Below are positions 30,926 to 47,748 of a stretch of DNA of 64,000 bases, piece by piece. Origin of the DNA: Chloroflexota bacterium (GTDB lineage Bacteria; Chloroflexota; Anaerolineae; Anaerolineales; UBA4823); NCBI GenBank assembly GCA_012516075.1, contig JAAYXE010000075.1, forward strand, positions 1,860 through 65,859, given 5' to 3'. A program made the translations under genes and the position numbers. Under the pieces are notes generated by a model. The model was given only the letters and a program-made list of their open reading frames with translations. It was not told the origin of the DNA and did not search any database. Each line of letters begins with the position of its first letter. The stretch's first letter is position 1.

Positions 30926-32521
30926 TCAGACAGCGGACCTGCCCACTGTGTTCTGAAGGACGATATCGTGCCCAGATTTTGGGGCAAACCATGCTGCGAT
31001 CCGCAGAAACAACAGACTGAAGATGATGTCGAGAAGCACCCTGCCAGGTTCCTGGCCGCCGAACAGCAGAGCCGCTCCGTACAGGAGTGTTGAAATCAGG
31101 GCACAGGTCGCAGTCCAGTTCACCTTCACCCCGCTCAAGATCGCCCGTCTGCGCGCTGCAGTGGATATAAAACCGGCGGGTAAGAACAGGAGCCCGGCGT
31201 AGAGCAGCCGGTAGATGTAAACTGCCTGCGAGTTCAGACGCACACGAGTGACACCGGCCGGGGGGAAAATCCAGAAAAAGTTCACCTGGGGGATGGATGC
31301 GAAAGCATATGCGTTGTGCGGGCCATCCAGGTAAACGCGCAGGTCATTTCCATTGAAGGCGATCAGGATCCGGCGCGGGGTCGAGCTGGAGAACACCCCG
31401 GGGACGATATACTCCGGTCTACTTCCGTTTTCCCCGCTGAGGCCGTTTCGCAGGCGGATCACCAGATCTGCCCCTTCCTGACCTGCGGTGAAATTGCGCT
31501 GGTAAGGGCTGGCCGACAGGGACAGGATGCGCGCCGGTCCCCATTGCTCCGCAGCAGCAGATGTCAGGGTGATACCGATCGTAAAAGCTGAGGTCTCGAT
31601 GATACGGGATGAGGCCGGCAGCGCGGCCGGATCGATCTCCAGCCAGGCGTCACCCGCAGTATGGAGTCCGTATTCGCCAAGCTGCGGGCTTCCGTGCAGG
31701 ATCCAGCCTCCCTGTGCTGTACCGTCAGTAAATGTGGTGAAAGCAAGATTGGCAATCAGAGAGGAGCCGGAAAACACATCCCGGTCCGGGTCCGAAAAAT
31801 AAGCCTTAACCTCGCTTTCCTTCAGCGCCCGGGCAGCGATCCAGATTTCTGAAACAACCCCCTGCCAGGGCCTGTCCCCCGTTTGTTCATTGCCGACCAG
31901 CAGGGGATAAGCCGGATCCCACGATTTCAGGCTGGACCGGTCAGCCAGTGTAAGGGTAAGGATAGGGATGAACCCCGTCCACAAAACCAGGAGAGCCGCA
32001 AACCCTGCAGCAGGGATCTGCCGGAAAATTTTGCCGGTCCAATTGAAAGCCCATTCGAGCAGACGCTCCCCCAATAAACGATAGATCAATAACCCTGCGC
32101 CGGCCCCTGCAGCGTTGGCAGCCAGATCCATCCAGGCCGAGAAGCGCAGCAGATAAAACTGCAGCAGTTCAACCGAAAACGAAAGCAGAAAACCGGCAGC
32201 CAGCACGACACAGCTGGCCAGTCCGCGCCGGACAGTCAGGCGGTCCAGCAGCAGAGCACAGAAAAAACCAAAAGGTATGAATAAAAGGATATTCCCCGGT
32301 ATGTCCTGGATAACGTAAGGCGCTGTAATTTCGGAATTAAAATGCTGAACCGCCTCGACCGGATGGGGAGCATCCGCAAACACGAAATCGAACGGGAACA
32401 GTGTCAGGTAAAGGATCAGTGCAGCATTCGCCAGGAGGAAAAACCAGAAAATGCCGTGCTTAGCCCCTTCCTGCTCATATCCACTGCGAGGACGGGTTTG
32501 GAGCGGCCTTTCCACAATCAT
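30926..32521 (-). CDS. membrane protein: VanZ-like N-terminal domain + LamG/concanavalin-like domain + C-terminal TM segments
   Basis: 531 aa. VanZ-like TM bundle (..LTLFPFDF..). LamG_3-type motif GDRPWQGVVSEIWIAARALKESEVKAYF. More TM helices at the C-terminus. Confidence 0.5.
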   Translation of the reverse strand: MIVERPLQTRPRSGYEQEGAKHGIFWFFLLANAALILYLTLFPFDFVFADAPHPVEAVQHFNSEITAPYVIQDIPGNILLFIPFGFFCALLLDRLTVRRGLASCVVLAAGFLLSFSVELLQFYLLRFSAWMDLAANAAGAGAGLLIYRLLGERLLEWAFNWTGKIFRQIPAAGFAALLVLWTGFIPILTLTLADRSSLKSWDPAYPLLVGNEQTGDRPWQGVVSEIWIAARALKESEVKAYFSDPDRDVFSGSSLIANLAFTTFTDGTAQGGWILHGSPQLGEYGLHTAGDAWLEIDPAALPASSRIIETSAFTIGITLTSAAAEQWGPARILSLSASPYQRNFTAGQEGADLVIRLRNGLSGENGSRPEYIVPGVFSSSTPRRILIAFNGNDLRVYLDGPHNAYAFASIPQVNFFWIFPPAGVTRVRLNSQAVYIYRLLYAGLLFLPAGFISTAARRRAILSGVKVNWTATCALISTLLYGAALLFGGQEPGRVLLDIIFSLLFLRIAAWFAPKSGHDIVLQNTVGRSAV

Positions 32522-32548
32522 GCCAGGAGCCCGGCTCTTTTCACAGCC

Positions 32549-33514
32549 TTAAACCTGACCTCTCTCGAACGGTTTTTCCGTGCTGGTCTGCAGCCCACCT
32601 CTCAACCGGTAGGACAGGTCTTTCGCGGCAACAATCAGATCACTGATCAGATGGCGCGCATTCTTTCTGATCCAGATCAACATATAGAAGTGCCCGAGTA
32701 AACGGGTTTTCAAATCCAGCGGGTACATCCACAGGCTGGTGAGGAACTCCTTGAACATTCGCCAGTACGGGAAGATGATTTTTCCGGCTTTCGTGGGGTC
32801 AAACCAGACGGTGTACAGATGATAGTTGTTGCCGCCGCTTTCGCTCAGTCCGAACATACGATTAGACTGCTTTGCATGCCTGCGGGAAAAGAAAAGGACT
32901 TCCGGAATTTCCTCAAATCGCCCCAGCAAACCCAGCCTGGCCAGGAGAACACCATCCGCATGACCATAATTCCCCATTACGGGCGTTTGCTTTAATGCGC
33001 TTGTGCGGATCAATCCAAAGATCTCAAAGCACATGCTCCAGTCCAGCAGCAGTGAGCGAAACCGGACGGCAGGTGAAGGCGAATCGGTGGGAAGTTTTAA
33101 CGTGTAATCAAGAATGTGGTTGCGTTTTTCATCCACGATCGTAACCCGTGGATAGCTCAGCACGACCGAAGGATCCTGATCCAGAACCTCTACGGCCCGG
33201 GCGAGGTATTCGGGGGCAATATAATCATCATGCGCTGCCCATTTAAAATATTCCCCCCTTGCGAGTTCAAAGACGCGGTTAAAGTTCCAGGCAGAGCCTT
33301 TATTTACCTCACTGCGGTAATAGCGAATGCGCCCGTCCTTCGCCGCGTATGCTTCACAAATCTCCTGCGTGCGGTCCGTTGAGGCATTATCCGAGATGAT
33401 CAGTTCAAAATCCTCGAAGGTCTGGACCAGAATTGAATCAATCGCCTCCGCAAGGTAGTTCTCCCCGTTGTACACAGGTAATCCGATACTTACTCTGGGA
33501 TTCTTTTCAGGCAT
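32549..33514 (-). CDS. glycosyltransferase family 2
   Basis: 321 aa. VSIGLPVYNGENYLAEAIDSILVQTFEDFELIISDNASTDRT, AAHDD. Confidence 0.85.
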   Translation of the reverse strand: MPEKNPRVSIGLPVYNGENYLAEAIDSILVQTFEDFELIISDNASTDRTQEICEAYAAKDGRIRYYRSEVNKGSAWNFNRVFELARGEYFKWAAHDDYIAPEYLARAVEVLDQDPSVVLSYPRVTIVDEKRNHILDYTLKLPTDSPSPAVRFRSLLLDWSMCFEIFGLIRTSALKQTPVMGNYGHADGVLLARLGLLGRFEEIPEVLFFSRRHAKQSNRMFGLSESGGNNYHLYTVWFDPTKAGKIIFPYWRMFKEFLTSLWMYPLDLKTRLLGHFYMLIWIRKNARHLISDLIVAAKDLSYRLRGGLQTSTEKPFERGQV

Positions 33515-33601
33515 TTAAGTCCTCCTATGAAAGATCGTTGTACTGCCTTTGGCTCCATATCTGACTTTAAGCAGATAGGGGTGGATGATTTGATGAAATG
33601 G

Positions 33602-34558
33602 TTACTGGCCGCTCACTGCTGAAGCGTTATCTCTATAAGTGATGGTCCTGCAGTCGAGCGGCATCCGCAGTCCCCGGAAAAATCCTTCCCAGAAGTAGAA
33701 GAATTTTTTCAATCCAGACGGGCGCTTAAATTGAAAGATGAGCGCCAGTGGTTGGAGTAATCCAACCCAGAAGGCTTCATATAACGCGACAACTGCGAAA
33801 TCAATGCGGCCGCAGCGCAGCGGCTTTACGTACGCAGCGCCAATTCCGAACCAGTTTCTTCGGGTTAATTCTTTACCTTCCTGCCAGGTCCGGAATCCAT
33901 CATGTACGATCGCTACGCGATTGGTCTCAAAGATCTGCCAGCCCTGCAGCAGTAATCGAACCGCGATATCCCCTTCTTCGCAGGCCTGAAAAATCGAACC
34001 CGGGCCCAGGCATACATCAAACCCCCCAATCTGCCTGGCAGCATTTTTCCTTAATGCCATACCAGCGCCGATGCCGCGCGCGGTGCATTTGTCGATTAGA
34101 TTTTTGACCAGCTTTTCATCCCTGCGGTCATATGTGGGTATGAAGCCCAGTTCAGAATCATGAGGTGCTGCTTTAACATTACAAAAAACAACTGCAACCC
34201 GTTCGTGCTGGAGAAACACAGTGCTGATGGTGCTGATCCAGTTTTCCGGCACGATGCAATCATCGTCGGTGTAGAGGACAAATTCTCCCTTCGCCGCGGC
34301 CAGGCCGATGTTCCTGGCATGGCCGGCGCCCTTCGTTGCAGTGTGCTTATACCGGAAGCGGGGATCCCGAAAAAATTTCGAGACCGCCGCTTCCGTATCG
34401 GGCTCGCTGCTCTGGTCTACCAGGATGACCTCGAAGCAGGGGTAGTCATTCGCCAGTATGGACTCCAGCGTCGCCACTACACGGTCGCCCCGGTTGCGGG
34501 TGCAAACAACAGCCGAGACTAAGGGTGGATCATTGCTGGGGCTGGGTAGTGGATCCAT
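33602..34558 (-). CDS. glycosyltransferase family 2
   Basis: 318 aa. VSAVVCTRNRGDRVVATLESILANDYPCFEVILVDQSS, YTDDDC. Confidence 0.8.
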   Translation of the reverse strand: MDPLPSPSNDPPLVSAVVCTRNRGDRVVATLESILANDYPCFEVILVDQSSEPDTEAAVSKFFRDPRFRYKHTATKGAGHARNIGLAAAKGEFVLYTDDDCIVPENWISTISTVFLQHERVAVVFCNVKAAPHDSELGFIPTYDRRDEKLVKNLIDKCTARGIGAGMALRKNAARQIGGFDVCLGPGSIFQACEEGDIAVRLLLQGWQIFETNRVAIVHDGFRTWQEGKELTRRNWFGIGAAYVKPLRCGRIDFAVVALYEAFWVGLLQPLALIFQFKRPSGLKKFFYFWEGFFRGLRMPLDCRTITYRDNASAVSGQ

Positions 34559-34629
34559 TAAGTGCAGCGCCTTTGCTTATCCAGAAATGCCTTTTCATAC
34601 CAACCGGGGCTGTGCTGGGTCTCAGCCTG

Positions 34630-35862
34630 TCAGATCACAGTCAATTCAGGGATGGGGACGATAAACCGGCCGCCCATCTGACGGTAATTCTCCTGCTGGC
34701 GTACAATCTCATCTTTGAAATTCCAGGCCAGCAGCAGAACAAAATCCGGACGGTCGGCGACCAGCTTTTCGACCGGATAAATCTTGAGGTGATTGCCACC
34801 CATATAACGCCCGTGCTTATAGGGGTTCAGATCGACCACATATTCAACCCATTCCTGTCCGATTCCGCAGTATGCCAGCAGTGTAGTGGCCTTGGCGGCT
34901 GCGCCGTAAGCCGCCGTCCGGCAGCCCTGGCGCTTCAGGTCAGCCAGAAAGGCGCGCAAATCGCGCCGGATCTTCTGCACCCGCTCTGCAAACCCCAGGT
35001 AAAAGTCGACACGGTCCACCTGCCGCTGCGCTTCCATCTGCAGCAGGTCCTTCACCCCGGGGCCGGGATTTTCAACCGGCTCGACGAACAGGCGCAACGA
35101 ACCGCCGTGGATTGCTACCCGCCGTACGTCATTGATGTACAGCCCGTGACGCCGGAATAGCCGGTCCAGCGCGGTCACCGAGAAATAGCACAGGTGCTGG
35201 TGGTAGATGGTGTCGAACTCCCCGTGATCCACTAAATCCACCACATACGGCGCTTCAATAACGGCGACACCGGTTTCCTTGAGGATTGTCTTGATCCCGG
35301 TGGCAAACCCGTTCAGGTCAGGCACGTGGGCCAGCACATTATTGGCCAGAAACACATCTGCCCGTTTGCCCTCCTGAACCAGTGCTTCGGCAAGCCCGGC
35401 ATTAAAGAAGGTGACCAGCGTAGGGATACCCGCACCCAGCGCAACCTGGGCAGGGGCCCTGGCCGGGTCAATGCCCAGAACCGGGATGCCGCGCTCGACG
35501 AAGTTCTTCAGCATGTAACCGTCATTGCTGGCAGCTTCAACGACCAGGCTGTTCTTATCCAGCTTCCTGCTGTTCATGATCTCCAGCGCACTGGTGCGGA
35601 AGTGGTGCAGCAGCGAGGGAGAAACCGAGGAGAAGTAAGGATACTCTGCGTAAAAAAGGATTTCCGGATCTACGGTTTCCCGGATTTGCACCAGTGCGCA
35701 GTCCTGGCAGAAAACCAGGGTCAGGGGCGCTTTGTATTCGGGCTGGTCGAGCTGTGCTTCGGTCAGCAGCCGGTCGGCCAGCGGGGTCTCACCGAACTCC
35801 AGGATGGTTTCCAGCCGGGTTGAGCCGCAGGAGCGGCAGCATTCTTCGTTGCGGTAAATCAT
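34630..35862 (-). CDS. NDP-hexose C-methyltransferase-like SAM methyltransferase (TylCIII-like)
   Basis: ORF 34630..35898. I prefer the ATG at 35862 (MIYRNEECCRSCGSTRLETILEFGETPLADRL...), preceded by aaaggtggg. Zn-ribbon CxxC...CxxC, class I MTase core and C-methyltransferase C-terminal domain. Confidence 0.7.
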   Translation of the reverse strand: MIYRNEECCRSCGSTRLETILEFGETPLADRLLTEAQLDQPEYKAPLTLVFCQDCALVQIRETVDPEILFYAEYPYFSSVSPSLLHHFRTSALEIMNSRKLDKNSLVVEAASNDGYMLKNFVERGIPVLGIDPARAPAQVALGAGIPTLVTFFNAGLAEALVQEGKRADVFLANNVLAHVPDLNGFATGIKTILKETGVAVIEAPYVVDLVDHGEFDTIYHQHLCYFSVTALDRLFRRHGLYINDVRRVAIHGGSLRLFVEPVENPGPGVKDLLQMEAQRQVDRVDFYLGFAERVQKIRRDLRAFLADLKRQGCRTAAYGAAAKATTLLAYCGIGQEWVEYVVDLNPYKHGRYMGGNHLKIYPVEKLVADRPDFVLLLAWNFKDEIVRQQENYRQMGGRFIVPIPELTVI

Positions 35863-35945
35863 TGTTCCCACCTTTATTCTGTCCTGCCAGGGCTGCATAC
35901 ACCTGTCGGTTGACAGCCCTGGACGGGACTGACCTAAATGCAGGT

Positions 35946-36989
35946 TCAGGCGGCCACCGGCTGGCGCCAGCGCAGGCTCTCATCCAGGCGGCCGCTGGCG
36001 ATCAGTTCCTTGATGTGGTTAATCCGGCGGTAGCGGGGACCTTCAAACTCCTCCACCGCCAGCCCTACTTTGCGATATGCCTCGTACAGTTCCTGAACCC
36101 CTTTACGAACGGTCCACTGGGGTTGATAGCCGGGCAGCGTGGTCTCGATTTTCTCGCAGCTCACCCGGTAATTGCGTTTGTCCGGGCCGGCGTCCGCCGC
36201 AAATTCAATCCTGCTGCCCGGGACAAGCTCGGCCACAATTTCCGCCAGTTCACGGATGCGGTAATTTTCAGAAGTCCTGCCCACGTTGAATGCCTGGTTG
36301 TGGATGAGCTCACGCGGAGCCTCCAGCGCGGCAAGAAATGCCCGTGACATATCCTCGATGTGAACGACGGGACGCCAGGGTGAACCGTCGCTTTTCAGGT
36401 AAACCAGTCCGGTCGTAAATGCCCAGGCGGTGAGGTTGTTGAGCACCAGGTCGAAGCGCAGCCGGGGCGAAACCCCATAGGCTGTGGCGCTGCGCAAAAA
36501 GACCGGACTGAAGTGGTCGCTGGCCAGCTGCGTGACGTCCTTTTCCACCATGACTTTGGAAACGCCGTAAGGGGTGACCGGGTTGAAAGGAGAGCTTTCA
36601 TCCAGCCAATCCTGGCCGCCTGCACCGTAGTTGCTGCATGAGGAAGCAAAGATAAAACGCTTCACGCCGGCCTCTCTGGCAAGACGGGCCAGCCGTACCG
36701 AGGCGCGATGGTTGATTTCGAAGGTCAGTTCCGGATTGAGGTCGCCAAGGGGATCATTCGACAGGCCGGCCAGGTGAATCACCGCATCCATCCCGTCCAG
36801 ATCTGAAATTTCGACATCGCGAACGTCTTTTTTGATTTCTGGAACCTGCGCCAGTTCTGACACGTCGCCATAGGTTGAACCGGCGTATAAATTGGTATCC
36901 AGGCCGACGACCTCGTGGCCGGCTTTCAATAACATGGGAACCATTACGGTGCCCACATACCCGTTATGTCCGGTGACCAGTACTCGCAT
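35946..36989 (-). CDS. NAD-dependent epimerase/dehydratase (extended SDR)
   Basis: ORF 35946..37007. The probable start at 36989 (MRVLVTGHNGYVG) has an AAGGA upstream. Catalytic YGVSK. Not the canonical RfbG N-terminus. Confidence 0.8.
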   Translation of the reverse strand: MRVLVTGHNGYVGTVMVPMLLKAGHEVVGLDTNLYAGSTYGDVSELAQVPEIKKDVRDVEISDLDGMDAVIHLAGLSNDPLGDLNPELTFEINHRASVRLARLAREAGVKRFIFASSCSNYGAGGQDWLDESSPFNPVTPYGVSKVMVEKDVTQLASDHFSPVFLRSATAYGVSPRLRFDLVLNNLTAWAFTTGLVYLKSDGSPWRPVVHIEDMSRAFLAALEAPRELIHNQAFNVGRTSENYRIRELAEIVAELVPGSRIEFAADAGPDKRNYRVSCEKIETTLPGYQPQWTVRKGVQELYEAYRKVGLAVEEFEGPRYRRINHIKELIASGRLDESLRWRQPVAA

Positions 36990-37003
36990 GATATTTTTTC
37001 CTT

Positions 37004-37774
37004 TCAATCCCAGATTTTCCAGGGAGCGTTTCCCGATTCCCAGAGTTTGTTTAAGATTTGTTTTTCACGCAGGGTGTCCATGCACTGCCAGAACCCCTCG
37101 TGCCGGTAGGCCATCAACTGACCATCGGCGGCCAGGCGCTCCAGTGGTTCTTTCTCCCACACGGTTTCATCGCCGTCGATGTAGTCAAAAATTCCGGGTT
37201 CCAGGACGAAAAATGCCCCGTTGATCCAGCCCTCACCGATCTGCGGTTTCTCAGTAAATTCAGCCACGCGATCGCCATCGAAGACCAGGTGGCCGTAGCG
37301 AGCCGGAGGGCGAACGGCTGTCAGGGTAGCCAGCTTCCCGTGTGAACGGTGGAAGTCCAGCAGCTTGTGAAGGTTGACCGTCGAAACGCCATCCCCCCAG
37401 GTGAGCATAAAGGTTTCGTTGCACAGGTACGGCTGCAGGCGTTTGATTCGACCGCCGGTCATCGTGTGCAGGCCGGTGTCCACCAGGTCCACCACCCAGT
37501 CCTGAACATCGCCGCCGTGGTTGTAAACCCGGCCGTTCCTCAAATCCACCCGCAGATTGCTGTTAAAGGAGAAGTAATCAACCATATAACGCTTGATCAC
37601 TTCACCTTTGTAACCCAGGGCAATCACGAATTCCTTGAAACCGTAGCAGGAATAGTGCATCATGATATGCCAGAGAATAGGCTTGCCCCCGATTTCAACC
37701 ATGGGTTTCGGCCTGATCTCGGTTTCCTCCGCCAGTCGGGAACCGGCACCACCTGCCAGAATAGCTACTTTCAT
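37004..37774 (-). CDS. rfbF: glucose-1-phosphate cytidylyltransferase
   Basis: ORF 37004..37801. The ATG at 37774 is preceded by caaggaggg. MKVAILAGGAGSRLAEETEIRPKPMVEIGGKPILWHIMMHYSCYGFKEFVIALGYKG is the RfbF signature. Confidence 0.9.
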   Translation of the reverse strand: MKVAILAGGAGSRLAEETEIRPKPMVEIGGKPILWHIMMHYSCYGFKEFVIALGYKGEVIKRYMVDYFSFNSNLRVDLRNGRVYNHGGDVQDWVVDLVDTGLHTMTGGRIKRLQPYLCNETFMLTWGDGVSTVNLHKLLDFHRSHGKLATLTAVRPPARYGHLVFDGDRVAEFTEKPQIGEGWINGAFFVLEPGIFDYIDGDETVWEKEPLERLAADGQLMAYRHEGFWQCMDTLREKQILNKLWESGNAPWKIWD

Positions 37775-37804
37775 AAACCCTCCTTGTTTGAGTTCATCCA
37801 TGCT

Positions 37805-38224
37805 TCAGAGGTTTTCCACACAGGATCCGTTACGAGGTATATCCGAGCTGCTTTTTTCATCCTGATCCAGACAGCTCGAAACCAGCTTTTTCAACTCAGA
37901 TGAGCTGAACGGGTGCGTCAAAAAGCCGCAAGCCCCACGCATCTGGACTTCTCTGTGAATTCTTTCCTGGCCGCTGGCCGTGATCAAAATCACAGGGAGA
38001 TCTTTAAAGCGCTTATCAGCGCGCACTTTGTCCAGCAGGCCCAGGCCATCCAGATATGGCATGTTGATATCGCTGATCAACAGGTCAACCCTGTTTTTCT
38101 CGAGATAGGCAACTGCTTCGACCCCATTGCGTGCTGCGGCGATCACGTGGCGCTCGGACCGCAAAATCAGTTCAATCAACCGGTGCGTCAGGTAGGAATC
38201 GTCTACTACAAGAATGTTTGCCAT
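37805..38224 (-). CDS. stand-alone CheY-like receiver (REC) protein
   Basis: 139 aa. ILVVDDS...DLLISDINMPYLDG...ILITA...HPF. Confidence 0.85.
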   Translation of the reverse strand: MANILVVDDSYLTHRLIELILRSERHVIAAARNGVEAVAYLEKNRVDLLISDINMPYLDGLGLLDKVRADKRFKDLPVILITASGQERIHREVQMRGACGFLTHPFSSSELKKLVSSCLDQDEKSSSDIPRNGSCVENL

Positions 38225-38233
38225 GCAGAGCCC

Positions 38234-38683
38234 TTATAAATACTTCACCAACCGCCAGTGGTTGTCGCCCGGCGATGGGTGATAGCTGACATGATCCATC
38301 AACTGGTGAATGAGAGCCAGCCCGTATCCCCTGACCTGCAAATTGCTGGGGTCAGGAAAGGCGGCATCGGGCAGCACAAACGAACGACCTGAATCGCGCA
38401 GATCGACAGTGAAAGAACCGGGGTTCTCTGTGATTGTGAAAACAGCCCGAATCCGGCCGTCCTGCTCACCATAGGCATGCTCGAGAATATTGATGCACAG
38501 TTCATGAACGGCCAGGTGAACACGATAAGCAGCATCCTGGGCGGCTGTTAAACTCTCCTGCTGGAACAGTGCAGAGACACAGGCGCCCAGCACTTTGAGA
38601 AATGGCTGTTGGGCGGGGATATCAAGCTGAAGGCGGCAAAGGCGCCCTGTGGCCGGTGCTGTGGTATCTTTCATGCTCATCAC
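38234..38683 (-). CDS. RsbW/SpoIIAB-like serine protein kinase (GHKL, HATPase_c_2)
   Basis: 149 aa. N-box HELCINILEHAY. G1-like LRDSGRSF. G2-like RGYGLALI. 4-nt overlap with the upstream phosphatase gene. Confidence 0.75.
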   Translation of the reverse strand: MMSMKDTTAPATGRLCRLQLDIPAQQPFLKVLGACVSALFQQESLTAAQDAAYRVHLAVHELCINILEHAYGEQDGRIRAVFTITENPGSFTVDLRDSGRSFVLPDAAFPDPSNLQVRGYGLALIHQLMDHVSYHPSPGDNHWRLVKYL

Positions 38684-40200
38684 ACGCCCGTGCGTTTCAG
38701 CACAACGAGAGTCTGGTCATCGTCCGGAAGCGCACCGGCGCCGAAATCTCTGACCGCCGTATACAGGTTTTCAGCAATCTCTCTGGCCGGCAGATGCGCA
38801 AGCGATTCCAGCAGGGCCATGAGGCGCTCGTGTCCAAGCATTTCTCCGCTGGTGCTGCGCATCTCGTTGAGACCATCCGTTCCCACCACCAGCACATCTC
38901 CGATATCGAAAGGCAGAACCTGGTCACGTGTGTACGTGTCACGGAGAATTCCAACCGGTAACCCATCAGCCTGCAGCAGGCGGGCCCGGCCACTGTGGGG
39001 CAGGAAAATGACAGGAGAATGACCGGCGTTGGCATATACCAGTTCCCCACTGCCAGGCAGGATCTGGCCGACGAACAGGGTGGCAAACCTGCCCAGAGAA
39101 GAGAGATCGTCGTACAGGGCTTCATTAGCGTGGCAGATCACCCCGGCCGGGGTGGCGCTGTCCTGGTGGTTCAAATCGGTGCGAATGACACTGCGCGCCA
39201 TCGCCATCAGCAGGGCAGCCGGGACACCTTTTCCCGAAACATCACATACCACGAAGGTAAACACCCCGTTCTGTGCTGCGATAAAGTCGTAGAAATCCCC
39301 ACCCACCTGAGAGGCCGGCTGGGAAGCTGCCCACAGATCAAAGCCCGGCGCTGCCTGTACCATCTCTGGCAGCAGGCTTACCTGCACCTGGTGAGCCAGA
39401 TCCATCTCGGTGCGCAGCCGCACCAGTTCTACGTTGGCTGCCACCATGCGCACGTTTTCCACACTTGCGCCGGCAAAGCGAGCTACCGTCTGCAGCATTT
39501 TGATATCCGACGACATGAACTCACCGCCCGGACGATCTGCGGCCCCTATGGCGGCAAACGGCACCCCGGCGACCTGCACCGGCACGATCAGCAGGTTATT
39601 CAACCCAATCGTATTGCGCGGGTCATTTCTATGAATGGAGACAAACGGGCTGCTCCCCTGTTCCAACTCGGCCAGCACATGCTGCAGGCCGGCAGGGCCA
39701 TCCCAACCCTCCGGACTGCAGGCCGTATGCACGTTTCCATTTGGAAGGCGCAGGAAAAAGAAAGCTTTTTCCGCATTCACCAGAGCGGCGGCCTGCGAGG
39801 TCAGCAGGTCCATCGTCTGCTCAAGGGTGATACTGCTGCGCAGCACCTGGGTCAGTTCGTACAACGCGACCAGTTGGTCGCGGGCTTCAACCAGTTCCTC
39901 GGTGAGGCTGTTCAGATCCCGGTTCAGCGGGATTAACGCTGAAATCAAGCCGGCATCGGCGGCCAGGCGCTCCCGGGTCCCTGGCGTGTCGATCCCGACC
40001 ACGCGCAGTTCACCGACCACCTGGTGGTCTACGATAAGCGGGGCAGCAACCACCTTTCCCGGGGGAGTGTTCTCCTGAGGCCAGGCAGCCTGAAGCCGGC
40101 GCCCCTCCCACAAAGAGACCTGCGCAGCGCCTCGAGCCAGCCACGACTGCGCCAGGGCATTGATCTGGGGGCGATATGATTCCAGAACGGAAGCCAGCAT
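38680..40200 (-). CDS. GAF-domain PP2C (SpoIIE/RsbU-type) serine phosphatase
   Basis: ORF 38680..40311. The ATG at 40200 (MLASVLE..) lies 2 nt past the STAS gene stop. Central GAF-like region. C-terminal PPM motifs GGDFYDF, VCDVSGKGVPAAL, NAGHSP, GTDGL, DDQTLVVLKR. Confidence 0.8.
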   Translation of the reverse strand: MLASVLESYRPQINALAQSWLARGAAQVSLWEGRRLQAAWPQENTPPGKVVAAPLIVDHQVVGELRVVGIDTPGTRERLAADAGLISALIPLNRDLNSLTEELVEARDQLVALYELTQVLRSSITLEQTMDLLTSQAAALVNAEKAFFFLRLPNGNVHTACSPEGWDGPAGLQHVLAELEQGSSPFVSIHRNDPRNTIGLNNLLIVPVQVAGVPFAAIGAADRPGGEFMSSDIKMLQTVARFAGASVENVRMVAANVELVRLRTEMDLAHQVQVSLLPEMVQAAPGFDLWAASQPASQVGGDFYDFIAAQNGVFTFVVCDVSGKGVPAALLMAMARSVIRTDLNHQDSATPAGVICHANEALYDDLSSLGRFATLFVGQILPGSGELVYANAGHSPVIFLPHSGRARLLQADGLPVGILRDTYTRDQVLPFDIGDVLVVGTDGLNEMRSTSGEMLGHERLMALLESLAHLPAREIAENLYTAVRDFGAGALPDDDQTLVVLKRTGV

Positions 40201-40202
40201 CT

Positions 40203-40592
40203 TCAACTCCGGAAGGAACGGATGGCTTCTTCCTCTGAGAGGAAGATCTCGAATACACTGTCCAGGCGGGTCAGTTCGAAAATAATCCTGACCTGCTGCT
40301 GGATTTCGCATAAACGCACATCGCCGTTCAGCGCCTGTGCCCGCTTCTTCCCCAGCACGAGGGTAGACAGTGCCGTTGAATCGAGAAAGGTTACGCCGCT
40401 TAAATTCACCACCACAAAGGCCGGCGGCTTGCTGGCCGCAGTTTCAAGCCATTCGCGCGCCGGCATGTGACTGGTAACATCAAAATTGCCGGCGAGCCGC
40501 AGAATCTGTATTTGACCAACGGTGGAGGTGCTGTCAATCAGTCCACCATCCATTACCGGTCTGGTTTCAGGGGAATAAGGATTTAATGCCAT
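40203..40592 (-). CDS. STAS-domain protein (anti-sigma-factor antagonist family, RsbV/SpoIIAA/SypA-like)
   Basis: 129 aa. ..FVVVNLSGVTFLDSTALSTLVLG.. keeps the phosphorylatable Ser of the DS[ST]G-type motif. Confidence 0.8.
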   Translation of the reverse strand: MALNPYSPETRPVMDGGLIDSTSTVGQIQILRLAGNFDVTSHMPAREWLETAASKPPAFVVVNLSGVTFLDSTALSTLVLGKKRAQALNGDVRLCEIQQQVRIIFELTRLDSVFEIFLSEEEAIRSFRS

Positions 40593-42211
40593 ACTCTACG
40601 CCACCATACCTGAGGAGTCTGTGAAAGGATTTTCAAGTCTTCCTGCCAGGAGCGCATTACAACGTAATACACATCTGCGATGAGGATCTCCTCCAGCTCG
40701 CTTTTACCCGCTGCCTGGGTGTACCACAGCCCGGTGATGCCCGGGCGGCAGTCATTGCGCTTTTCCTGCCAGGCTTCGACAATTTTTTCCGCTTCGGTCG
40801 GCGACAGGGGTTTTACGCCCACCAGGTTGAGATCGCCGCGCAGCACGTTGATCAGTTCCGGCAGCCGGTGCCATTCGAGTTTCTCCAGGAGCCTGCCCAT
40901 TTTTGTCAGGCAGCCGTGGTCATCTCGAGTGGCAAACTGGTAAAGATTGAAAGCAGTCTGCTCCGCGTTATGTCCCCATACAACCGGGACGCCGTAAAAA
41001 ACCCGTCCGCTGGTTAACCACAGCAGCAGAGCGAGGGGGAGGGTCAGGGGCAGCGTGACCAGCAGTAAGAGCAGCGCCAGGCCGGCGTCGAAAATTCGCT
41101 TCAGCCCCCTCTCTGTAAAGGCTGCCGGCACCCGGCTCAACAGAAAGTCATCCGCTATTTGAATGCTGCTGGATGTACGGACGTCGATTACCTGATTCTG
41201 CTGCACCACACGATCCTGAAGGCGCACATACTGTCCAACATAGGTATGGTCCAGAATAGTGCTGCAGCGTACGGTCGCCCCCTGATCGATGACCACATTG
41301 GAACCGACCACAGTATACGGCCCTAATTCAACGCCTTTTCCAATACGGGAATTCTGCCCGATATAAACGGGAGGGATGATCTGCGCCTCGGGATGGATGG
41401 AGGAGCCGTTTCCAATCCACACCCCTTTCATCGCCTGACGCGCTTTATACAGCGCATAACGAGGCAGCGCTGAATTGTCCCGGCCTCTACCCGACTGGTA
41501 AAAATGCGCCAGGAAGGCCTCCTGTGCCTGCTGGTACTCTTTCAACGTCCCAAGCAAATTGCAGTAGCCTTCTTCGAAGTGCGCTCTGACTTTCCACCCG
41601 TTCTGAACCAGTGCCGTCAGCAGATCCTGGTGAATATCAAACTTCGTCCGCGCCGGGATGAAATCCAGGACCTGCGGATCCAGCAGGTAGACACCGGTAT
41701 CAACCCATCCCGCCGGGCCGGATAGCAGTTCCAGGCCAGTGACAAAGCCCTGATCATCCACTGCCAGGCGATTGCCATCGTCCCCGTTCACCCTGCTCAC
41801 GACAACCGTCGCACAGGCCCCACTGCTGATGTGTTCATCCAGCAGCTTCTCGAGATCAAAGTCAATGATCGCATCCGCTGGGACAACCAGGAACGGACTG
41901 CGCAGCCGCGAGGCAGCCAGCTTCAACACCCCGGCGGATCCCCACGGCTCGCGTTGAAGGACATATTCCAGCTCCACCCCCCAGCGGCGCCCCGAACCAA
42001 AATACGCCTCAATAGAGCCGCCGAAGGCATACAAACCGACCAGATACTTCTTTATCCCCTGCCGGGCGAGCAGTTCCAGTGGATAGGTCATTACCGGCTG
42101 GTTCAACACTGGAACCATCGCCGAAGGGAGGTTTTCCGTCAGCGGATACAGCTTCCGGGATTCTCCGGAAGCCTGCAGAAAAACCGGCAGTTCCCCTACG
42201 GATGGCATCAT
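40583..42211 (-). CDS. fusion protein: NTP-transferase-like + LbH + TM + monotopic phosphoglycosyl-transferase-like domain (catalytic motifs degenerate)
   Basis: 542 aa. The N-terminal nucleotidyltransferase fold has ASGESRKLYPLT in place of GGxGTRLxPLT. LbH repeats (IGQNSRIGKGVELGPYTVVGSNVVIDQGATV). TM helix. Bac_transf-like C-terminus has WHRLPELINVLRGDLNLVGVKP instead of [21 protein letters not shown], and PGITGLW. Confidence 0.65.
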   Translation of the reverse strand: MMPSVGELPVFLQASGESRKLYPLTENLPSAMVPVLNQPVMTYPLELLARQGIKKYLVGLYAFGGSIEAYFGSGRRWGVELEYVLQREPWGSAGVLKLAASRLRSPFLVVPADAIIDFDLEKLLDEHISSGACATVVVSRVNGDDGNRLAVDDQGFVTGLELLSGPAGWVDTGVYLLDPQVLDFIPARTKFDIHQDLLTALVQNGWKVRAHFEEGYCNLLGTLKEYQQAQEAFLAHFYQSGRGRDNSALPRYALYKARQAMKGVWIGNGSSIHPEAQIIPPVYIGQNSRIGKGVELGPYTVVGSNVVIDQGATVRCSTILDHTYVGQYVRLQDRVVQQNQVIDVRTSSSIQIADDFLLSRVPAAFTERGLKRIFDAGLALLLLLVTLPLTLPLALLLWLTSGRVFYGVPVVWGHNAEQTAFNLYQFATRDDHGCLTKMGRLLEKLEWHRLPELINVLRGDLNLVGVKPLSPTEAEKIVEAWQEKRNDCRPGITGLWYTQAAGKSELEEILIADVYYVVMRSWQEDLKILSQTPQVWWRRVWH

Positions 42212-42215
42212 CGTG

Positions 42216-43661
42216 TCACCCCTGAGCGGCAGCCGAGGTCAGGTTATCGTACAGGGCCAGCAGGCGGTGAAAATTCGCCATGGTGATCACCTGCATGACG
42301 TCTTTCGAACAGCCGCTCACGCGCAGCTCGCCGCCCGCTTCACGCGCCAGCCGGGTCATCGTAGCCAGGGCCGCCAGACCTGCGCTGGTAATGAAATCCG
42401 TTGTCGACAGATCCAGGATCACAAACGGTGATCGCTGTAGAGCCTGCTGGCAGTCTGCAATGACCTGGGACGCCGTGCCGGCGTCGAAAAAGCGCGGTCC
42501 GGTGAGCAGCACCCAGCGCCCGTGATCTCGCACGGTGCTGGTCGTGTCCGATTTGGTCTGTACCTCACCTGCGCAGCTCGTCTCTGTCCGCAGCAGGGTA
42601 TCCAGCTTAAGAAAAGCGAGCGACTTTTGAATTCGGGCCGGTACTGCCCGCAGGGCCAGGGATCCGTCCCGCTGGCGGATGATCCTGGCGAGTTCCACCA
42701 GCGTACCCAGGGCAGAGCTGTCCAGATGCTGCGCGGCGTTAAGATCGATCACCAGGTGAACAGTACGGTCGAGAGCCTGCTCTGCCAGTTCCCAGAAGCG
42801 CTGGCAGTGTTCGGCCGCCATGCTTCCCCCGATCGACAGGACGGCTGTGTCCCCTTCCATCTTTAGGTCAAGCGAGAAAGGTTGGCCCGAGTCGGAAGCT
42901 CCCCGGCGCATCTGCAGCCACTGACAGGCGAACAGAAAAGTGAATGCACCCAGATCAACCGCATAGCGGCGCCACAGGCGGCCGGGTTCCTGTATCAACC
43001 GGTACAGCCACTCCAGACCGTTCTTCTGCATCCACAGCGGGGCGCGCCTGGTGGTGCCGGTGATGAAGTCCAGGGTTCCGCCAACTCCCATCATCAGCGG
43101 AACGCCCAGCTGGTGAGCATACATACCCATCCACTTTTCCTGCTTGGGGTTGCCGAACGCGATGAGCAGAACGTCCGGCCGGGCGGCACGGATCTTCTCC
43201 GGAATAGACTCATCCATCTCCAGCACGGGTCTGTAAGGCGGGGAGTAGAAGCCGGCAATGCGCAGGGTCGGGTGACGTTCCTGAAGGATATGCGCCGCAC
43301 GCGCGGCCACCCCGGGCGCTGCTCCCAGCAAATAAATGGAATAACCCTTTTGCGCCGCCCGGGCAGCAAACCTGGGTACCAGATCAGCCCCTGCCACACG
43401 CTCTTCGATGTGCCCTCCCAGCAAACGCGCTCCCCAGACCACAGGCATTCCGTCCGCAGTTGCCAGATCGGCGTTCTGGAGCAGGTAGCGCAGCTCCGGG
43501 TCCTGACGGGCCTTAACGACAAAATCGGCATTAACGGTCACCACCTGAAACGTTCTACCGGTCGCACGGCCCTGCTGGACAAACGCTTCCATGCGCTTCA
43601 GGGTCGCTTCCATATTCAGATTGTCAACAGGCGTACCGAGAATGACGATCAGGTTTCGCAC
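42216..43661 (-). CDS. WecG/TagA/CpsF-family (GT26) glycosyltransferase fused to two C-terminal STAS domains
   Basis: 481 aa. GT26 part: ILGTPVDNLNMEATL...VVTVNADFVVKARQDPELRYLLQNADLATADGMPVVWGARLLG...FGNPKQEKW. STAS-1: ..LVIDLNAAQHLDSSALGTLVELARI.. STAS-2: ..FVILDLSTTDFITSAGLAALATMTRL.. Confidence 0.75.
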   Translation of the reverse strand: MRNLIVILGTPVDNLNMEATLKRMEAFVQQGRATGRTFQVVTVNADFVVKARQDPELRYLLQNADLATADGMPVVWGARLLGGHIEERVAGADLVPRFAARAAQKGYSIYLLGAAPGVAARAAHILQERHPTLRIAGFYSPPYRPVLEMDESIPEKIRAARPDVLLIAFGNPKQEKWMGMYAHQLGVPLMMGVGGTLDFITGTTRRAPLWMQKNGLEWLYRLIQEPGRLWRRYAVDLGAFTFLFACQWLQMRRGASDSGQPFSLDLKMEGDTAVLSIGGSMAAEHCQRFWELAEQALDRTVHLVIDLNAAQHLDSSALGTLVELARIIRQRDGSLALRAVPARIQKSLAFLKLDTLLRTETSCAGEVQTKSDTTSTVRDHGRWVLLTGPRFFDAGTASQVIADCQQALQRSPFVILDLSTTDFITSAGLAALATMTRLAREAGGELRVSGCSKDVMQVITMANFHRLLALYDNLTSAAAQG

Positions 43662-43753
43662 CAGACCTACCCTTTCCCATCCCCCACAACCGTCTCATGT
43701 AATGCAGCGGGTTCGCAGCCGCTGTATTACCCCCGAAAAACAATATATTTAAT

Positions 43754-44605
43754 TTAATATGCTCCCTTGCCAGTGATCACGGCGGGGATGGTCTTGATGA
43801 GGATCTCAATGTCTTTGAGCAGGCTTTGCTCCTGAATGTACTGCAGATCCAGTTCAACCCAGCGCTGGAAGGAAAGGTCGCTGCGGCCGGAAACCTGCTG
43901 CAGCCCGGTGATTCCGGGTACGGCATCCAGGCGAGCAAAGGTATCGAAATCGTACTGACTCACCTCAGCGGGAACCGGCGGCCGCGGTCCCACCAGGCTC
44001 ATGTTGCCCTCGATCACATTGAAAAGCTGCGGCAGCTCATCGATGCTCAGCTTACGGATCAGCCGCCCTACACGGGTCACGCGTGGATCTTGACGGATCT
44101 TGAACACCACCTTATCGGCCTCATTCATGTCCATCAACTCTTGTTTGCGCGCCTCGGCATCCACATCCATGGAACGAAACTTATAGCAGTCGAACTCCTT
44201 TCCCCACTTCCCCACGCGCTTCTGGCGAAAAATCACAGGCCCAGGGGAATCGAGCTTGATGGCGAGCGCAGTGATCGCCATCACCGGCAGGGCAAAGGGA
44301 AGAAGTCCCAGCGCCAGGATCAGGTCCAGACATCGCTTGAGATTATTTTTGATTTTGATGCGGATGACCCAGGTCAGGAGCAGCAGACGGATGCGCTGCC
44401 GGGAAAGGCCTTTATTAAACGCCTGTTGGGCATGGATTTCGACCATTCGAGCTGTTTTTTCAGCCTCGGTCAGCACCACCCTCGGGGCGTACACATCCGT
44501 ATTGTTACCTGCTTTTAGCTGATCAACCCCGCTAAAACGGTAACTACCGGTATATGGACGGAACTTATTTCCGTCGGGCAGTGGTTTTGAACGAAGCACT
44601 TGCAT
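43754..44605 (-). CDS. canonical monotopic phosphoglycosyl transferase (undecaprenyl-phosphate sugar-phosphate transferase, EpsL/PglC/WbaP-C type)
   Basis: 283 aa. ..[30 protein letters not shown]...[38 protein letters not shown]...[12 protein letters not shown]. Confidence 0.85.
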
Positions 44606-44608
44606 TGA

Positions 44609-45877
44609 TTACCCCTCATTTCTCGTCGTTCGAACCCATTCTTGCTGGCTGTGACCAAGATACACTCCCAGCACCTGTTTAACTTTCCACAGTACGAATA
44701 GCGGTACAAAGATGAAGGCCCGGTAGATTTCTCTGGGCGCCTTCACCATCTGCAATCCCGAGAAAACATAGAATGCCATCCCACCGGCCACACCCGCGCT
44801 CAGAATCAGATTGGTGCGCCCCAGCCAGAGCAGAAGCGGACTGCCGCCGGGCAGGAACCCGAGAGCGCTGCCAGCAAACAGGAGAACCGCAGCCAGCAGA
44901 TCCAGCCCGGCGAACAATGCCAGGATGGAAAATGGTGGGATGACATGTTCCACCAGTGCATCCAGATAAAGGACAGACCCGCGCAGGTCCCTTTTCAGCA
45001 GTGAAAGCCAGAATTTGCGCGCCAGATGGGGAACATAACGGCGGGCCATCTCCACCCGCCCGCTCTCCCAGCGATCATGCTGCGACTTCGACCGGCTCAG
45101 GTTGTCCGGCATCTGACCCTGCACGACTGCATCTGGGACGAAGATCACCCTTTCGCCAGCCAGCAGCAGCTTCATATGCTGTTCGATATCCTCTGTGACG
45201 GATGCAGACCAGGGGAAGCGGCGCAGCAGATCTGTGGCAAAGATCATGCCGTTGCCCTTTAACCCGGCCGATCCTCCCAGCACCATCCTCCCCAGCGGGC
45301 GCAGGTAATGCAGCCCAGCGAGAGCGATGTAGCGAATGCTCTCCGGCCCTGAACCCAGCGGACTGCGCACAGTGTAGTAAGCCTGCAGCACACGACTTCC
45401 CTGAGTTAGATAAAAATCTGCAGCAGCCAGGAAGTTCGTGGAAACTACCGAATCGGCGTCCAGGATCACCACCGCATCATCGTTGGACGTCTTCAAAAGT
45501 TTGTCGAGCGCCCACTGCAGAGCATATCCCTTGCCCCGCTTTTCGAGGTCCGTCCGCTGGTGGACGACTGCGCCCATCTGCTGTGCAACCAGCGCCGTCT
45601 GGTCCGTACAGTTATCCGCGATCACATGTACAGAGAAATGGTCGGCCGGATAATCGAGATCCGCCAGGTTTCTCAGCAAAACAGGCAGCAGTTTTTCCTC
45701 ATTGTGGGCGGGAATGAGGATGAGGAACTTGCTGCGCGACTTGCCCTGCTCTACCCGGCGCTTCCTCCCTGCCGCTTTCCAGGCTGCAAACGTCAGCAGA
45801 ACCAGATACCCAACCGGCAGGAGCAAGCCGGTTTGGAACAGGAGCAGTAAGCCTTGCAGCCAGGTAAAAAACACCAT
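44609..45877 (-). CDS. membrane-embedded GT2 with processive-synthase-type motifs (D, DxD, TED, QxxRW)
   Basis: 422 aa. N- and C-terminal TM segments. ILIPAHNEE, VVILDADS, SVTEDIE, QHDRWESG. First gene of the operon. Confidence 0.75.
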   Translation of the reverse strand: MVFFTWLQGLLLLFQTGLLLPVGYLVLLTFAAWKAAGRKRRVEQGKSRSKFLILIPAHNEEKLLPVLLRNLADLDYPADHFSVHVIADNCTDQTALVAQQMGAVVHQRTDLEKRGKGYALQWALDKLLKTSNDDAVVILDADSVVSTNFLAAADFYLTQGSRVLQAYYTVRSPLGSGPESIRYIALAGLHYLRPLGRMVLGGSAGLKGNGMIFATDLLRRFPWSASVTEDIEQHMKLLLAGERVIFVPDAVVQGQMPDNLSRSKSQHDRWESGRVEMARRYVPHLARKFWLSLLKRDLRGSVLYLDALVEHVIPPFSILALFAGLDLLAAVLLFAGSALGFLPGGSPLLLWLGRTNLILSAGVAGGMAFYVFSGLQMVKAPREIYRAFIFVPLFVLWKVKQVLGVYLGHSQQEWVRTTRNEG

Positions 45878-47493: not shown

Positions 47494-47550
47494 CTGCAGT
47501 CTGACCCAGGGGGCCCTACCAAACTATCCTGGTGAGTCGAAGGACTACAG

Positions 47551-47640
47551 CGGGGAGGACAGGATTCGAACCTGCGGCCGAGTTTTTAGCCCGGCAACCG
47601 CTTAGCAGGCGGCCCCATTCGTCCACTCTGGCACCTCCCC
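47551..47640 (-). tRNA. tRNA-Ser (anticodon GCU), class II with long variable arm; CCA not encoded
   Basis: Reverse complement GGGGAGGTGCCAGAGTGGACGAATGGGGCCGCCTGCTAAGCGGTTGCCGGGCTAAAAACTCGGCCGCAGGTTCGAATCCTGTCCTCCCCG. Acceptor GGGGAGG/CCTCCCC, anticodon loop CTGCTAA, T-loop GGTTCGAATCC. Confidence 0.85.
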
Positions 47641-47659
47641 TTTTCGATGTGGAAATGGC

Positions 47660-47748
<89 letters not shown>

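Follow-up and report, generated by a model that had tools for sequence, protein, structure and literature searches.

What does a partner-switching module control when it is encoded inside a polysaccharide operon and no sigma factor accompanies it? This question is raised by six minus-strand open reading frames (ORFs) that occupy positions 37805-43661 of a 64,000-nt stretch of DNA, hereafter the window, from a Chloroflexota bacterium (assembly GCA_012516075.1, contig JAAYXE010000075.1, positions 1,860 to 65,859 of the forward strand). In order, they encode a GT26-family glycosyltransferase carrying two STAS domains (GT26-STAS-STAS), a fusion of a nucleotidyltransferase-like and left-handed beta-helix (NT-LbH) module with a phosphoglycosyltransferase (PGT)-like domain, a free STAS protein, a GAF-PP2C phosphatase, an RsbW/SpoIIAB-like serine kinase and a CheY-like receiver (REC). 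A first-pass annotation had assigned these domains from the letters of the DNA; all six assignments were upheld by Pfam, and the folds were also recovered with AlphaFold and Foldseek. We consider it probable, with moderate confidence, that the block gates the early repeat-unit assembly of a surface polysaccharide at the protein level through its kinase, PP2C phosphatase and STAS domains, and GT26-STAS-STAS is proposed as the regulated output of this switch.

Together with a small PGT, which belongs to the module as its conserved upstream neighbour, and a membrane GT2 glycosyltransferase, the block is a self-contained regulatory module of approximately eight genes that is conserved in Chloroflexota. 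The sequence features of the block fit a working phospho-switch.

Conservation of the module across Chloroflexota

Of the candidates scored in a word-index search, 1,670 were related to the GT26-STAS protein at E <= 0.001. Each of the best 120 displayed the WecG+STAS+STAS arrangement at 48-56% identity, and those of the 120 that carry a taxonomic name were from Chloroflexi, Anaerolineae or Ardenticatenaceae. In a scan of one genome per GTDB species at least 564 relatives were detected, and the best 80 loci, with 41-55% protein identity, were examined together with 10 kb on either side. Seventy-nine of the 80 loci were from Chloroflexota, and they were distributed over two classes, namely Anaerolineae (Ardenticatenaceae, Promineifilaceae, Anaerolineales and Thermoflexales) and Chloroflexia (Chloroflexus, Oscillochloris, Chloroploca, Viridilinea and Roseiflexaceae). 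The remaining locus, L066 (JBLIMP010000207.1), is labelled as a metagenome-assembled genome (MAG) of Cellvibrionaceae and has the typical GT2-PGT-GT26STAS-fusion order; since all 79 other loci are from Chloroflexota, it is probably a binning error rather than a sign of spread to Proteobacteria.

The six-frame ORFs of the related loci were searched with the window proteins, and the informative loci were the 63 with at least 6.5 kb of downstream flank and the 67 with at least 3 kb of upstream flank. The recurring order was GT2, PGT, GT26-STAS-STAS, NT-LbH-PGT-like fusion, STAS, GAF-PP2C, kinase and REC, and the counts for the single genes are given in Table 1. The fusion, free STAS, PP2C and kinase genes were found together with GT26-STAS, and in order, in 52 of the 63 loci, and all five downstream genes, including REC, in 43. 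A gene-neighbourhood survey had been suggested by the first-pass annotation as a check on its reading, and the co-occurrence of STAS, kinase, PP2C and GT26-STAS that it asked about is what we observed, in those 52 loci with the fusion as well. Such linkage goes far beyond chance, with the gene order preserved in 52 of the 63 loci, which come from two classes and share only 41-55% protein identity. The fusion is the gene most tightly linked to GT26-STAS, and wherever the free STAS was present the kinase always accompanied it. In an all-against-all clustering of the ORFs of at least 90 aa from the 80 loci, only the eight module families were present in at least 49 of 80 loci, and the next non-antisense family was found in 33. 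Two MAGs of Chloroflexaceae, CAKZQX01 (L040, L050) and DAOTUI01 (L044, L051), harbor two whole-module copies each on different contigs, and therefore the module can be duplicated within a genome.

The sigma factor that classical partner switches would lead one to expect was not found. No sigma domain was detected by Pfam in the scanned window ORFs of at least 200 aa, and the clustering of the 80 loci revealed no conserved sigma factor, anti-sigma target or transcription factor within 10 kb on either side; a sigma factor as the alternative partner of the kinase was thus seen neither in the window nor at these loci. A conserved sigma/anti-sigma pair just outside the block, which the first-pass annotation had named as a result that would overturn its reading, was likewise found neither in the window nor within 10 kb in the 80 loci. 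Its statement that no sigma factor, anti-sigma target or DNA-binding protein lies in or next to the block stood as regards the sigma factor and has to be amended as regards DNA-binding proteins, since a REC-GerE (NarL-type) response regulator is encoded approximately 3 kb upstream, though among the related loci this regulator is not conserved beside the module in other genomes.

The GT26 enzyme and its tandem STAS domains

In the GT26 protein, Pfam recognized Glyco_tran_WecG (3.6e-65), STAS_2 at residues 275-354 and STAS at residues 392-477, and the two STAS domains extend over approximately residues 262-362 (STAS1) and 380-481 (STAS2). A phmmer search against solved structures matched residues 6-238 to TagA of T. 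italicus (7mpk) with an E value of 4e-39. The TagA residues T37, N39, D65, R83, Q167, E168, R214 and R221 correspond to T42, N44, D70, R88, Q174, E175, R221 and R228 of the window protein, and these eight catalytic and appendage residues are invariant or at least 90% conserved in 120 homologues. The features of the GT-E fold, that is the catalytic Thr, Asn, Asp and Gln-Glu as well as the Arg-bearing C-terminal appendage, are therefore all present. The AlphaFold2 (AF2) model of the whole protein reached a predicted local distance difference test score (pLDDT) of 92.8 and a predicted template modelling score (pTM) of 0.91, and Foldseek matched the model to TagA/TarA with template modelling (TM) scores of 0.91-0.94 (on target) and to SpoIIAA/RsbV with a TM of approximately 0.8. 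MlaB and SLC26 were among the weaker structural and profile matches. The best NCBIfam match of the GT26 protein was the Myxococcus-type EpsA at 178 bits, below its cutoff.

The position of the first STAS domain deserves attention. The TagA-type appendage is modelled as helices at residues 209-252, and STAS1 begins after a linker of approximately 10 residues. In TagA, the C-terminal appendage (helices H10-H12) delivers Arg221 to the active site; membrane binding proceeds through it as well, and so does the conversion of the inactive dimer into the active monomer (PMC6493773). The location of STAS1 directly behind an appendage that determines activity in TagA suggests a possible, concrete structural mechanism that can be tested.

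With regard to phosphorylation, D314-S315 of STAS1 was present in 81 of 81 sequences, and S426 of STAS2 was kept in 78 of 81, with the Asp that would precede it replaced by Ala, Thr or Ser. A STAS domain that keeps the phospho-Ser position is hence covalently joined to a glycan-assembly enzyme. No other enzyme class carrying the tandem STAS was found in a library of 1.84 billion representatives, where the multi-domain matches checked were GT26 fusions or fragments. The enzyme-borne STAS domains as the direct target of the switch are partly supported, as this fits both the invariant Asp-Ser of STAS1 and the position of STAS1 right after the appendage.

The free STAS, phosphatase, kinase and receiver

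The free STAS protein was recognized by Pfam STAS (2e-18) and, above its cutoff, by NCBIfam ant_ant_sig (64.6 bits). Its D71-S72-T73 is kept in 64-66 of 66 orthologues, the phospho-Ser itself in 65. Ser72, which lies in the motif FLDSTAL, aligns with the phospho-Ser of SpoIIAA (FMDSSG in chain 1th8_B, with Ala at this position in the variant chain 1tid_B), in agreement with the first-pass annotation, which had taken this motif to keep the phospho-Ser position. The phosphorylatable Ser at the start of helix 3 within a DS[ST]G-type motif, by which STAS antagonists are recognized, is accordingly present in the free STAS. In cross-scoring with hidden Markov models, the free STAS was only modestly closer to STAS1 than to STAS2, and the scores singled out no STAS as the preferred one of the kinase.

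The phosphatase, which has a conserved N-terminal region ahead of its GAF domain, matched Pfam SpoIIE at 6e-43 and GAF at 8e-7, and it displays the conserved metal-site motifs GGDFYD, GDVSGKG, TDG and DDDQT of SpoIIE-family PP2C phosphatases. The kinase matched HATPase_c_2 (4.5e-22), and its best NCBIfam matches were RsbW models, below their equivalog cutoffs; the N-box HE..N..EHAY, the DxG and the GYGL are conserved in 62 orthologues, and the N, G1 and G2 boxes of GHKL kinases are thus present. The receiver matched Response_reg (6e-25) and retains the acidic pocket D8/D9, D52 and T82. At position 104 it has His in the window, and the 49 orthologues have Lys in 30, Gln in 12, His in 3 and other residues in 4.

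The second gene encodes a probable double pseudoenzyme

The product of the second gene had been described as an NTP-transferase/PGT-like fusion, and as an ordinary enzyme of either kind it has to be given up, because the catalytic motifs are lost across the whole family. Pfam recognized NTP_transferase (3e-23), Hexapep and Bac_transf (5.6e-29) in the fusion protein, and the Bac_transf score was 101 bits, against 218 bits for the adjoining genuine PGT. In the alignment to this neighbouring PGT, the Asp-Glu dyad (SIDELPQ) falls on His-Arg in the window fusion, and the second dyad position is Arg in 67 of 73 fusion family sequences. Moreover, 64-67 of the 73 sequences have V-K-P instead of PRP. 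The nucleotidyltransferase half is altered in the same manner: the signature GxGTR...PK has become a family consensus of A-T-x-E-x-x-K/R...P-[AST]-P, and AAGKGTR...PKP of the active enzyme 8x7s aligns to ASGESRK...PSA in the fusion (GKGTR against GESRK, PKP against PSA). Neither the Asp-Glu dyad and PRP of monotopic PGTs nor the G-x-G-[TS]-R and the catalytic Lys of PK of sugar-1-phosphate nucleotidyltransferases are therefore found in this protein.

The fold, on the other hand, is well preserved. The AF2 model of the fusion had a pLDDT of 90.6 and retained the PGT-like fold with its hydrophobic helix, the protein has one strongly hydrophobic segment at residues 369-402, and Foldseek returned the NT-LbH folds of tlr0611, GMPP and eIF2B. 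The fusion forms a discrete family, with scores that fall from 343 to 174 bits at the family edge, and the taxonomic names attached to its members are all of Chloroflexota lineages. With both catalytic signatures lost across the family, the fusion is probably a membrane-anchored double pseudoenzyme.

A role as a non-catalytic membrane scaffold or as a sugar-nucleotide sensor is suggested by analogy with GMPPA, for which GDP-mannose binding without catalysis and a regulatory effect on its paralogue GMPPB have been described (PMC11228364). GMPPA and eIF2B gamma/epsilon have in common with the fusion an NT-LbH fold and a degenerate nucleotidyltransferase signature; unlike in these proteins, the NT-LbH module of the fusion is joined to a probably dead PGT-like membrane domain, and the analogy should be taken as a lead only. 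As a conserved, probably inactive protein, the NT-LbH-PGT fusion is a new candidate for a regulatory pseudoenzyme in glycan assembly.

Variant loci

Some loci deviate from the common composition in an informative way. In L016, the GAF-PP2C and the free REC are replaced by a REC-SpoIIE protein (13893-15044, minus strand) of HenR/RsbY architecture, which stands beside a hybrid histidine kinase of 1,318 aa with the domains CHASE4-HAMP-GAF-PAS-HisKA-HATPase-REC-REC (15431-19387, minus strand). In L072, a PAS-GAF hybrid histidine kinase directly follows the pseudoenzyme gene (10522-14415). Judged by their domains, L016 and L072 point to a His-Asp input into the switch. Two other loci, L042 (15058-16176) and L061 (5619-6728), harbor an extra PHP-PHP_C-STAS fusion of approximately 370 aa between the PP2C and kinase genes, and in L053 a PHP-STAS gene (13515-14621) takes the usual position of the GAF-PP2C. 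The PHP family includes protein phosphatases, and PHP-STAS may be a non-orthologous replacement of the phosphatase. In these swaps the parts change and the underlying scheme, a phosphatase with His-Asp signalling as its input, stays the same, which supports the functional reading of the module.

Proposed mechanism and alternative explanations

According to the scheme that we favour, the small PGT would prime the lipid carrier and the TagA-like GT26 enzyme would add the second sugar, which would be the committed step. The RsbW-like kinase would phosphorylate Ser315 of STAS1, probably Ser72 of the free STAS and possibly Ser426 of STAS2, and either phosphorylation or the binding of the kinase would hold the GT26 enzyme inactive or off the membrane. 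The phospho-state or the bound kinase would decide whether the adjacent appendage completes the GT26 active site at the membrane. The GAF-PP2C phosphatase would reverse the phosphorylation and turn synthesis on. The free STAS and the enzyme would compete for the kinase, and the enzyme would fill the slot held by the sigma factor in classical partner switches. A small molecule could provide an input through the GAF domain, and a His-Asp phosphorelay another through the stand-alone receiver, while the NT-LbH-PGT-like protein would serve as a catalytically dead, membrane-anchored partner, either a scaffold or a sugar-nucleotide sensor. We infer the kinase-substrate pairing and the roles of the appendage and of the pseudoenzyme in this scheme.

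In a bolder form of it, the kinase would be an "anti-enzyme factor" by which the tandem STAS is captured, and the free STAS would be a mimic that releases the enzyme; the doubly dead pseudoenzyme would couple the switch to the sugar-nucleotide supply at the membrane, and the whole would serve as a phylum-wide control point of an envelope or sheath glycopolymer. This we put forward tentatively, and in its full extent we consider it somewhat unlikely.

Several observations weigh against the favoured scheme. STAS2 lacks the Asp before its Ser and may escape phosphorylation. Approximately 10-15% of the informative loci are without a local kinase, STAS or PP2C and still keep the DS motif; at these loci paralogues encoded elsewhere in the genome could take over the regulation, or the motif could have a different function. 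The receiver of the window, being without the conserved Lys, may have an atypical phospho-signalling. The sign of the regulation, with the unphosphorylated form presumed to be active, is borrowed from Anabaena All4160 and Vibrio fischeri SypA. Furthermore, a sigma target could lie farther away than 10 kb in the relatives or beyond the 64 kb of the window.

The strongest of the alternatives keeps the same players and moves the phosphorylation. SpoIIAB-type kinases are dimers that bind two STAS proteins. In the manner of an anti-sigma factor with its sigma factor, a kinase dimer might form a stoichiometric complex with the tandem STAS of GT26 and keep the enzyme inactive; only the free STAS would then be phosphorylated and dephosphorylated, and its unphosphorylated form would strip the kinase off. 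The presence of a free STAS in the same operon as the enzyme-borne STAS in 55 of 63 loci would suit such sequestration, as would the mutual homology of the three STAS types, with the free STAS closest to STAS1. The two STAS domains per enzyme would suit it too, and kinases of this type crystallise with STAS partners (PDB 1th8 and 6m36, both among the Foldseek matches). However, the Asp-Ser of STAS1, invariant in all 81 sequences, is easier to explain by phosphorylation of the serine itself, and the kinase of the Anabaena system phosphorylates the fused STAS itself. We therefore hold sequestration without phosphorylation of the enzyme to be unlikely.

A second alternative places the output elsewhere than in GT26. 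The unphosphorylated free STAS would act on the pseudoenzyme, the PGT, the export machinery or an unlinked sigma factor, and the STAS domains of GT26 would be docking or ligand-binding modules like those of SLC26 or MlaB. SypA/SypE and other sigma-less switches do act through a free STAS whose target is unresolved (PMC8256260), non-phospho roles of STAS domains exist (MlaB and SLC26 being among the weaker matches here), and a small number of loci have GT26-STAS but no switch genes close by. Nevertheless, the phospho-Ser position of STAS1 is conserved as strictly as that of the free STAS, tandem STAS domains of this type turned up on GT26 proteins only, with kinase and phosphatase genes beside them in nearly every case, and the surroundings of the 80 loci revealed neither a conserved sigma factor nor another conserved candidate target, so that this explanation appears quite improbable.

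Lastly, RsbV, RsbW and RsbU paralogues are often scattered through bacterial genomes, and a general stress-type partner switch might have come to lie inside a polysaccharide operon by chance, an explanation that is effectively refuted by the order kept in 52 of 63 loci of two classes, by the overlapping or tight gene junctions and by the physical fusion of STAS domains to the enzyme, and that recent horizontal copies of one island would hardly rescue, given the identities of 41-55% and the spread over taxa.

The gating of glycan assembly through phosphorylation of the GT26-borne STAS thus remains the reading that we prefer. Direct post-translational gating had already been proposed by the first-pass annotation; the wiring that it described holds good, as does the lack of a conserved sigma partner, the principle is already published for another system, and the gating itself is what we infer.

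Comparison with known systems and significance

The first-pass annotation knew of no described system with this architecture; the principle is on record through the work of Harada, Matsuoka & Ehira on Anabaena sp. PCC 7120 (Mol Microbiol, June 2026; PMC13555669). Their All4160 consists of an N-terminal STAS fused to a Bac_transf PGT; the kinase Alr3423 phosphorylates Ser74 of All4160, which renders it inactive, and the REC-SpoIIE phosphatase HenR is needed for activation. Proteins with STAS and Bac_transf were reported to be rare outside cyanobacteria, and the strategy was called lineage-specific by the authors (PMC13555669). The All4160/HenR/Alr3423 system and the present module share a STAS fused to a polysaccharide-assembly enzyme, a conserved Ser, an RsbW-type kinase, a SpoIIE-family phosphatase, a receiver input and the lack of a sigma factor, which for the Chloroflexota module are predicted from sequence. 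The differences are nonetheless considerable. The phylum is another one; All4160 is a Bac_transf PGT with one N-terminal STAS, whereas the Chloroflexota enzyme is a GT26 protein with two C-terminal STAS domains, and neither Bac_transf protein of the module has a STAS. The Anabaena components are scattered and their model is without a free STAS, whereas in Chloroflexota the parts lie in one operon block together with a free STAS and the pseudoenzyme. HenR is a REC-SpoIIE protein, whereas the window has a GAF-SpoIIE and a separate REC, REC-SpoIIE being seen in the variant L016. The principle is thus already known from Anabaena, and what is new is the GT26 enzyme, the free STAS, the pseudoenzyme and the Chloroflexota-wide operon.

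SypE and SypA of V. fischeri form a sigma-less switch that acts through a free STAS (PMC8256260). By its set of domains, the present module resembles it in being sigma-less, in belonging to a polysaccharide locus, in having a free STAS with the phospho-Ser position and in combining kinase, REC and PP2C domains. SypE unites the three domains in one polypeptide, whereas Chloroflexota have three genes, with a GAF domain added to the phosphatase. In addition, the target of SypA is unresolved, whereas in the Chloroflexota operon an enzyme carries STAS domains itself and is a candidate target. With SpoIIE/SpoIIAA/SpoIIAB and RsbU/RsbV/RsbW of Bacillus subtilis the module shares the STAS fold with its phospho-Ser, the GHKL kinase motifs and the PP2C motifs; unlike these classical partner switches, it has no sigma factor in the window or conserved in the 80 loci, and its kinase scores below the RsbW cutoffs.

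On the side of the enzyme, TagA/TarA (PDB 5wb4, 7mpk) and GT26-STAS-STAS have the fold, the catalytic Thr/Asn/Asp/Gln-Glu and the appendage arginines in common. TagA/TarA is the N-acetylmannosamine (ManNAc) transferase of the wall teichoic acid linkage unit, a peripheral-membrane enzyme that acts on a lipid-PP-sugar right after priming (PMC6493773), and the Chloroflexota GT26 enzyme would act likewise. TagA has no STAS and no known phospho-regulation, whereas the Chloroflexota GT26 carries two STAS domains, and the acceptor of the latter would be made by a Bac_transf-type PGT, that of TagA by a TagO/WecA-type enzyme. Searches of the literature for links of STAS with GT26, WecG, TagA or Chloroflexus, or for a Chloroflexus phosphoproteome, returned nothing relevant.

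With these comparisons in mind, phospho-STAS control of a glycan enzyme would extend past cyanobacteria to a second phylum, and to GT26 rather than a PGT. As all players are encoded in one operon, it can be tested directly what the kinase phosphorylates and how the free STAS contributes, and Oscillochloris, and likely Chloroflexus, are cultured carriers of the block for experiments. The module also bears on a long-open question, the targets of sigma-less STAS proteins such as SypA. If true, a switch in which an enzyme takes the place of the sigma factor would govern a core envelope or sheath glycopolymer of these filamentous bacteria across the phylum, and it would be a tractable model for the targets of SypA-like sigma-less STAS proteins.

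Gene boundaries and genomic surroundings

The coordinates of the module genes and of the neighbouring features are collected in Table 1. The PP2C gene starts, by reading of the sequence, at ATG 40200, two bases past the stop codon of the STAS gene, and not at 40311. For the free STAS gene, ATG 40553 is the probable start, with 116 aa encoded, because the gene callers in three of the four places shown and the lengths of the orthologues agree on this; such a start leaves a 29-nt gap to the preceding gene instead of an overlap. The ATG of the kinase gene overlaps the stop codon of the PP2C gene, and at the remaining junctions of the block the genes overlap or are 2-9 nt apart. The earlier description of all junctions as overlaps or gaps of at most 10 nt accordingly needs correction at one place, the probable 29-nt gap before the free STAS. 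The overlapping and tight junctions suggest co-translation of the block genes.

Table 1. Genes of the module and neighbouring features in the window, with the number of related loci in which each module gene was found (n = 63 with downstream flank, n = 67 with upstream flank, n = 80 for clustering)
Feature	Coordinates	Strand	Basis	Related loci
Membrane GT2 glycosyltransferase, EpsU-like	44609..45877	-	Pfam Glyco_tranf_2_3 and related GT2 models	44/67 upstream; 50/80 by clustering
Small PGT (Bac_transf), predicted active priming enzyme	43754..44605	-	Pfam, motifs, upstream linkage	63/67 upstream
GT26 (TagA/WecG/CpsF-type)-STAS-STAS	42216..43661	-	Pfam, phmmer, AF2/Foldseek	
NTP-transferase/LbH/PGT-like fusion	40583..42211	-	Pfam NTP_transferase, Hexapep, Bac_transf	61/63
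Free STAS, SpoIIAA/RsbV type	40203..40592 (likely start ATG 40553)	-	Pfam STAS, NCBIfam ant_ant_sig	55/63
N-terminal conserved region + GAF + PP2C (SpoIIE/RsbU family) phosphatase	38680..40200	-	Pfam GAF, SpoIIE	53/63
RsbW/SpoIIAB-like GHKL serine kinase	38234..38683 (probable start ATG 38680)	-	Pfam HATPase_c_2	57/63
Single-domain CheY-like receiver (REC)	37805..38224	-	Pfam Response_reg	45/63
Two adjacent tRNA-Ser genes (anticodons GCT, TGA)	47550-47748	-		
REC-GerE (NarL-type) response regulator	47314-46625	-		
Deoxysugar genes adjoining the module	about 29655-37801	-		
VanZ-like protein with LamG/concanavalin-like segment, 531 aa	30926-32521	-		
GH44 glycoside hydrolase	16646-18322	-		

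Immediately upstream of the block, the small PGT matched Bac_transf at 8e-65, with SIDELPQ in 70 of 70 sequences and the PRP motif present. The GT2 protein has several hydrophobic segments and an NCBIfam match to EpsU of 244 bits, below the cutoff. The best NCBIfam names for the GT26, GT2 and PGT proteins are the Myxococcus-type EpsA, EpsU and EPS_sugtrans/EpsZ, all below the curated cutoffs, and this enzyme trio (42216-45877) resembles the Myxococcus-type priming set and cannot be called orthologous to it. A hairpin seen by eye in the 92-nt spacer between the PGT and GT26 genes was dropped, as its fold was no better than that of shuffled sequences (z = 0.66). Between 33 and 48 kb, a promoter/terminator scan gave counts no higher than in shuffles and is uninformative on operon boundaries, and an Rfam scan of the whole window detected no riboswitch and only three tRNAs.

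The block sits in a long minus-strand polysaccharide cluster of the Wzx/Wzy type, which occupies approximately 14.3-45.9 kb. That sugar-activating and sugar-transfer enzymes flank the block on both sides, as the first-pass annotation had it, agrees with the Pfam and NCBIfam matches of the flanking genes. Farther upstream there are a small ORF without a family match, a divergent MurJ-like flippase and a subtilase, and the two tRNA-Ser genes lie upstream of the polysaccharide cluster. On the downstream side, the module is adjoined by a glucose-1-phosphate cytidylyltransferase (TIGR02623, 373 bits), an NDP-sugar dehydratase/epimerase and two or three C-methyltransferase-type proteins, a set that suggests, by its predicted functions, a CDP-linked, C-methylated deoxysugar in the polymer of this strain and that recurs beside the module in a subset of the loci only. 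Further downstream, GT2 and GT4 enzymes, Wzz, Wzx, Wzy and a BcsQ/ParA-like ATPase are encoded, and the VanZ-LamG protein and the GH44 hydrolase also lie inside the polysaccharide cluster.

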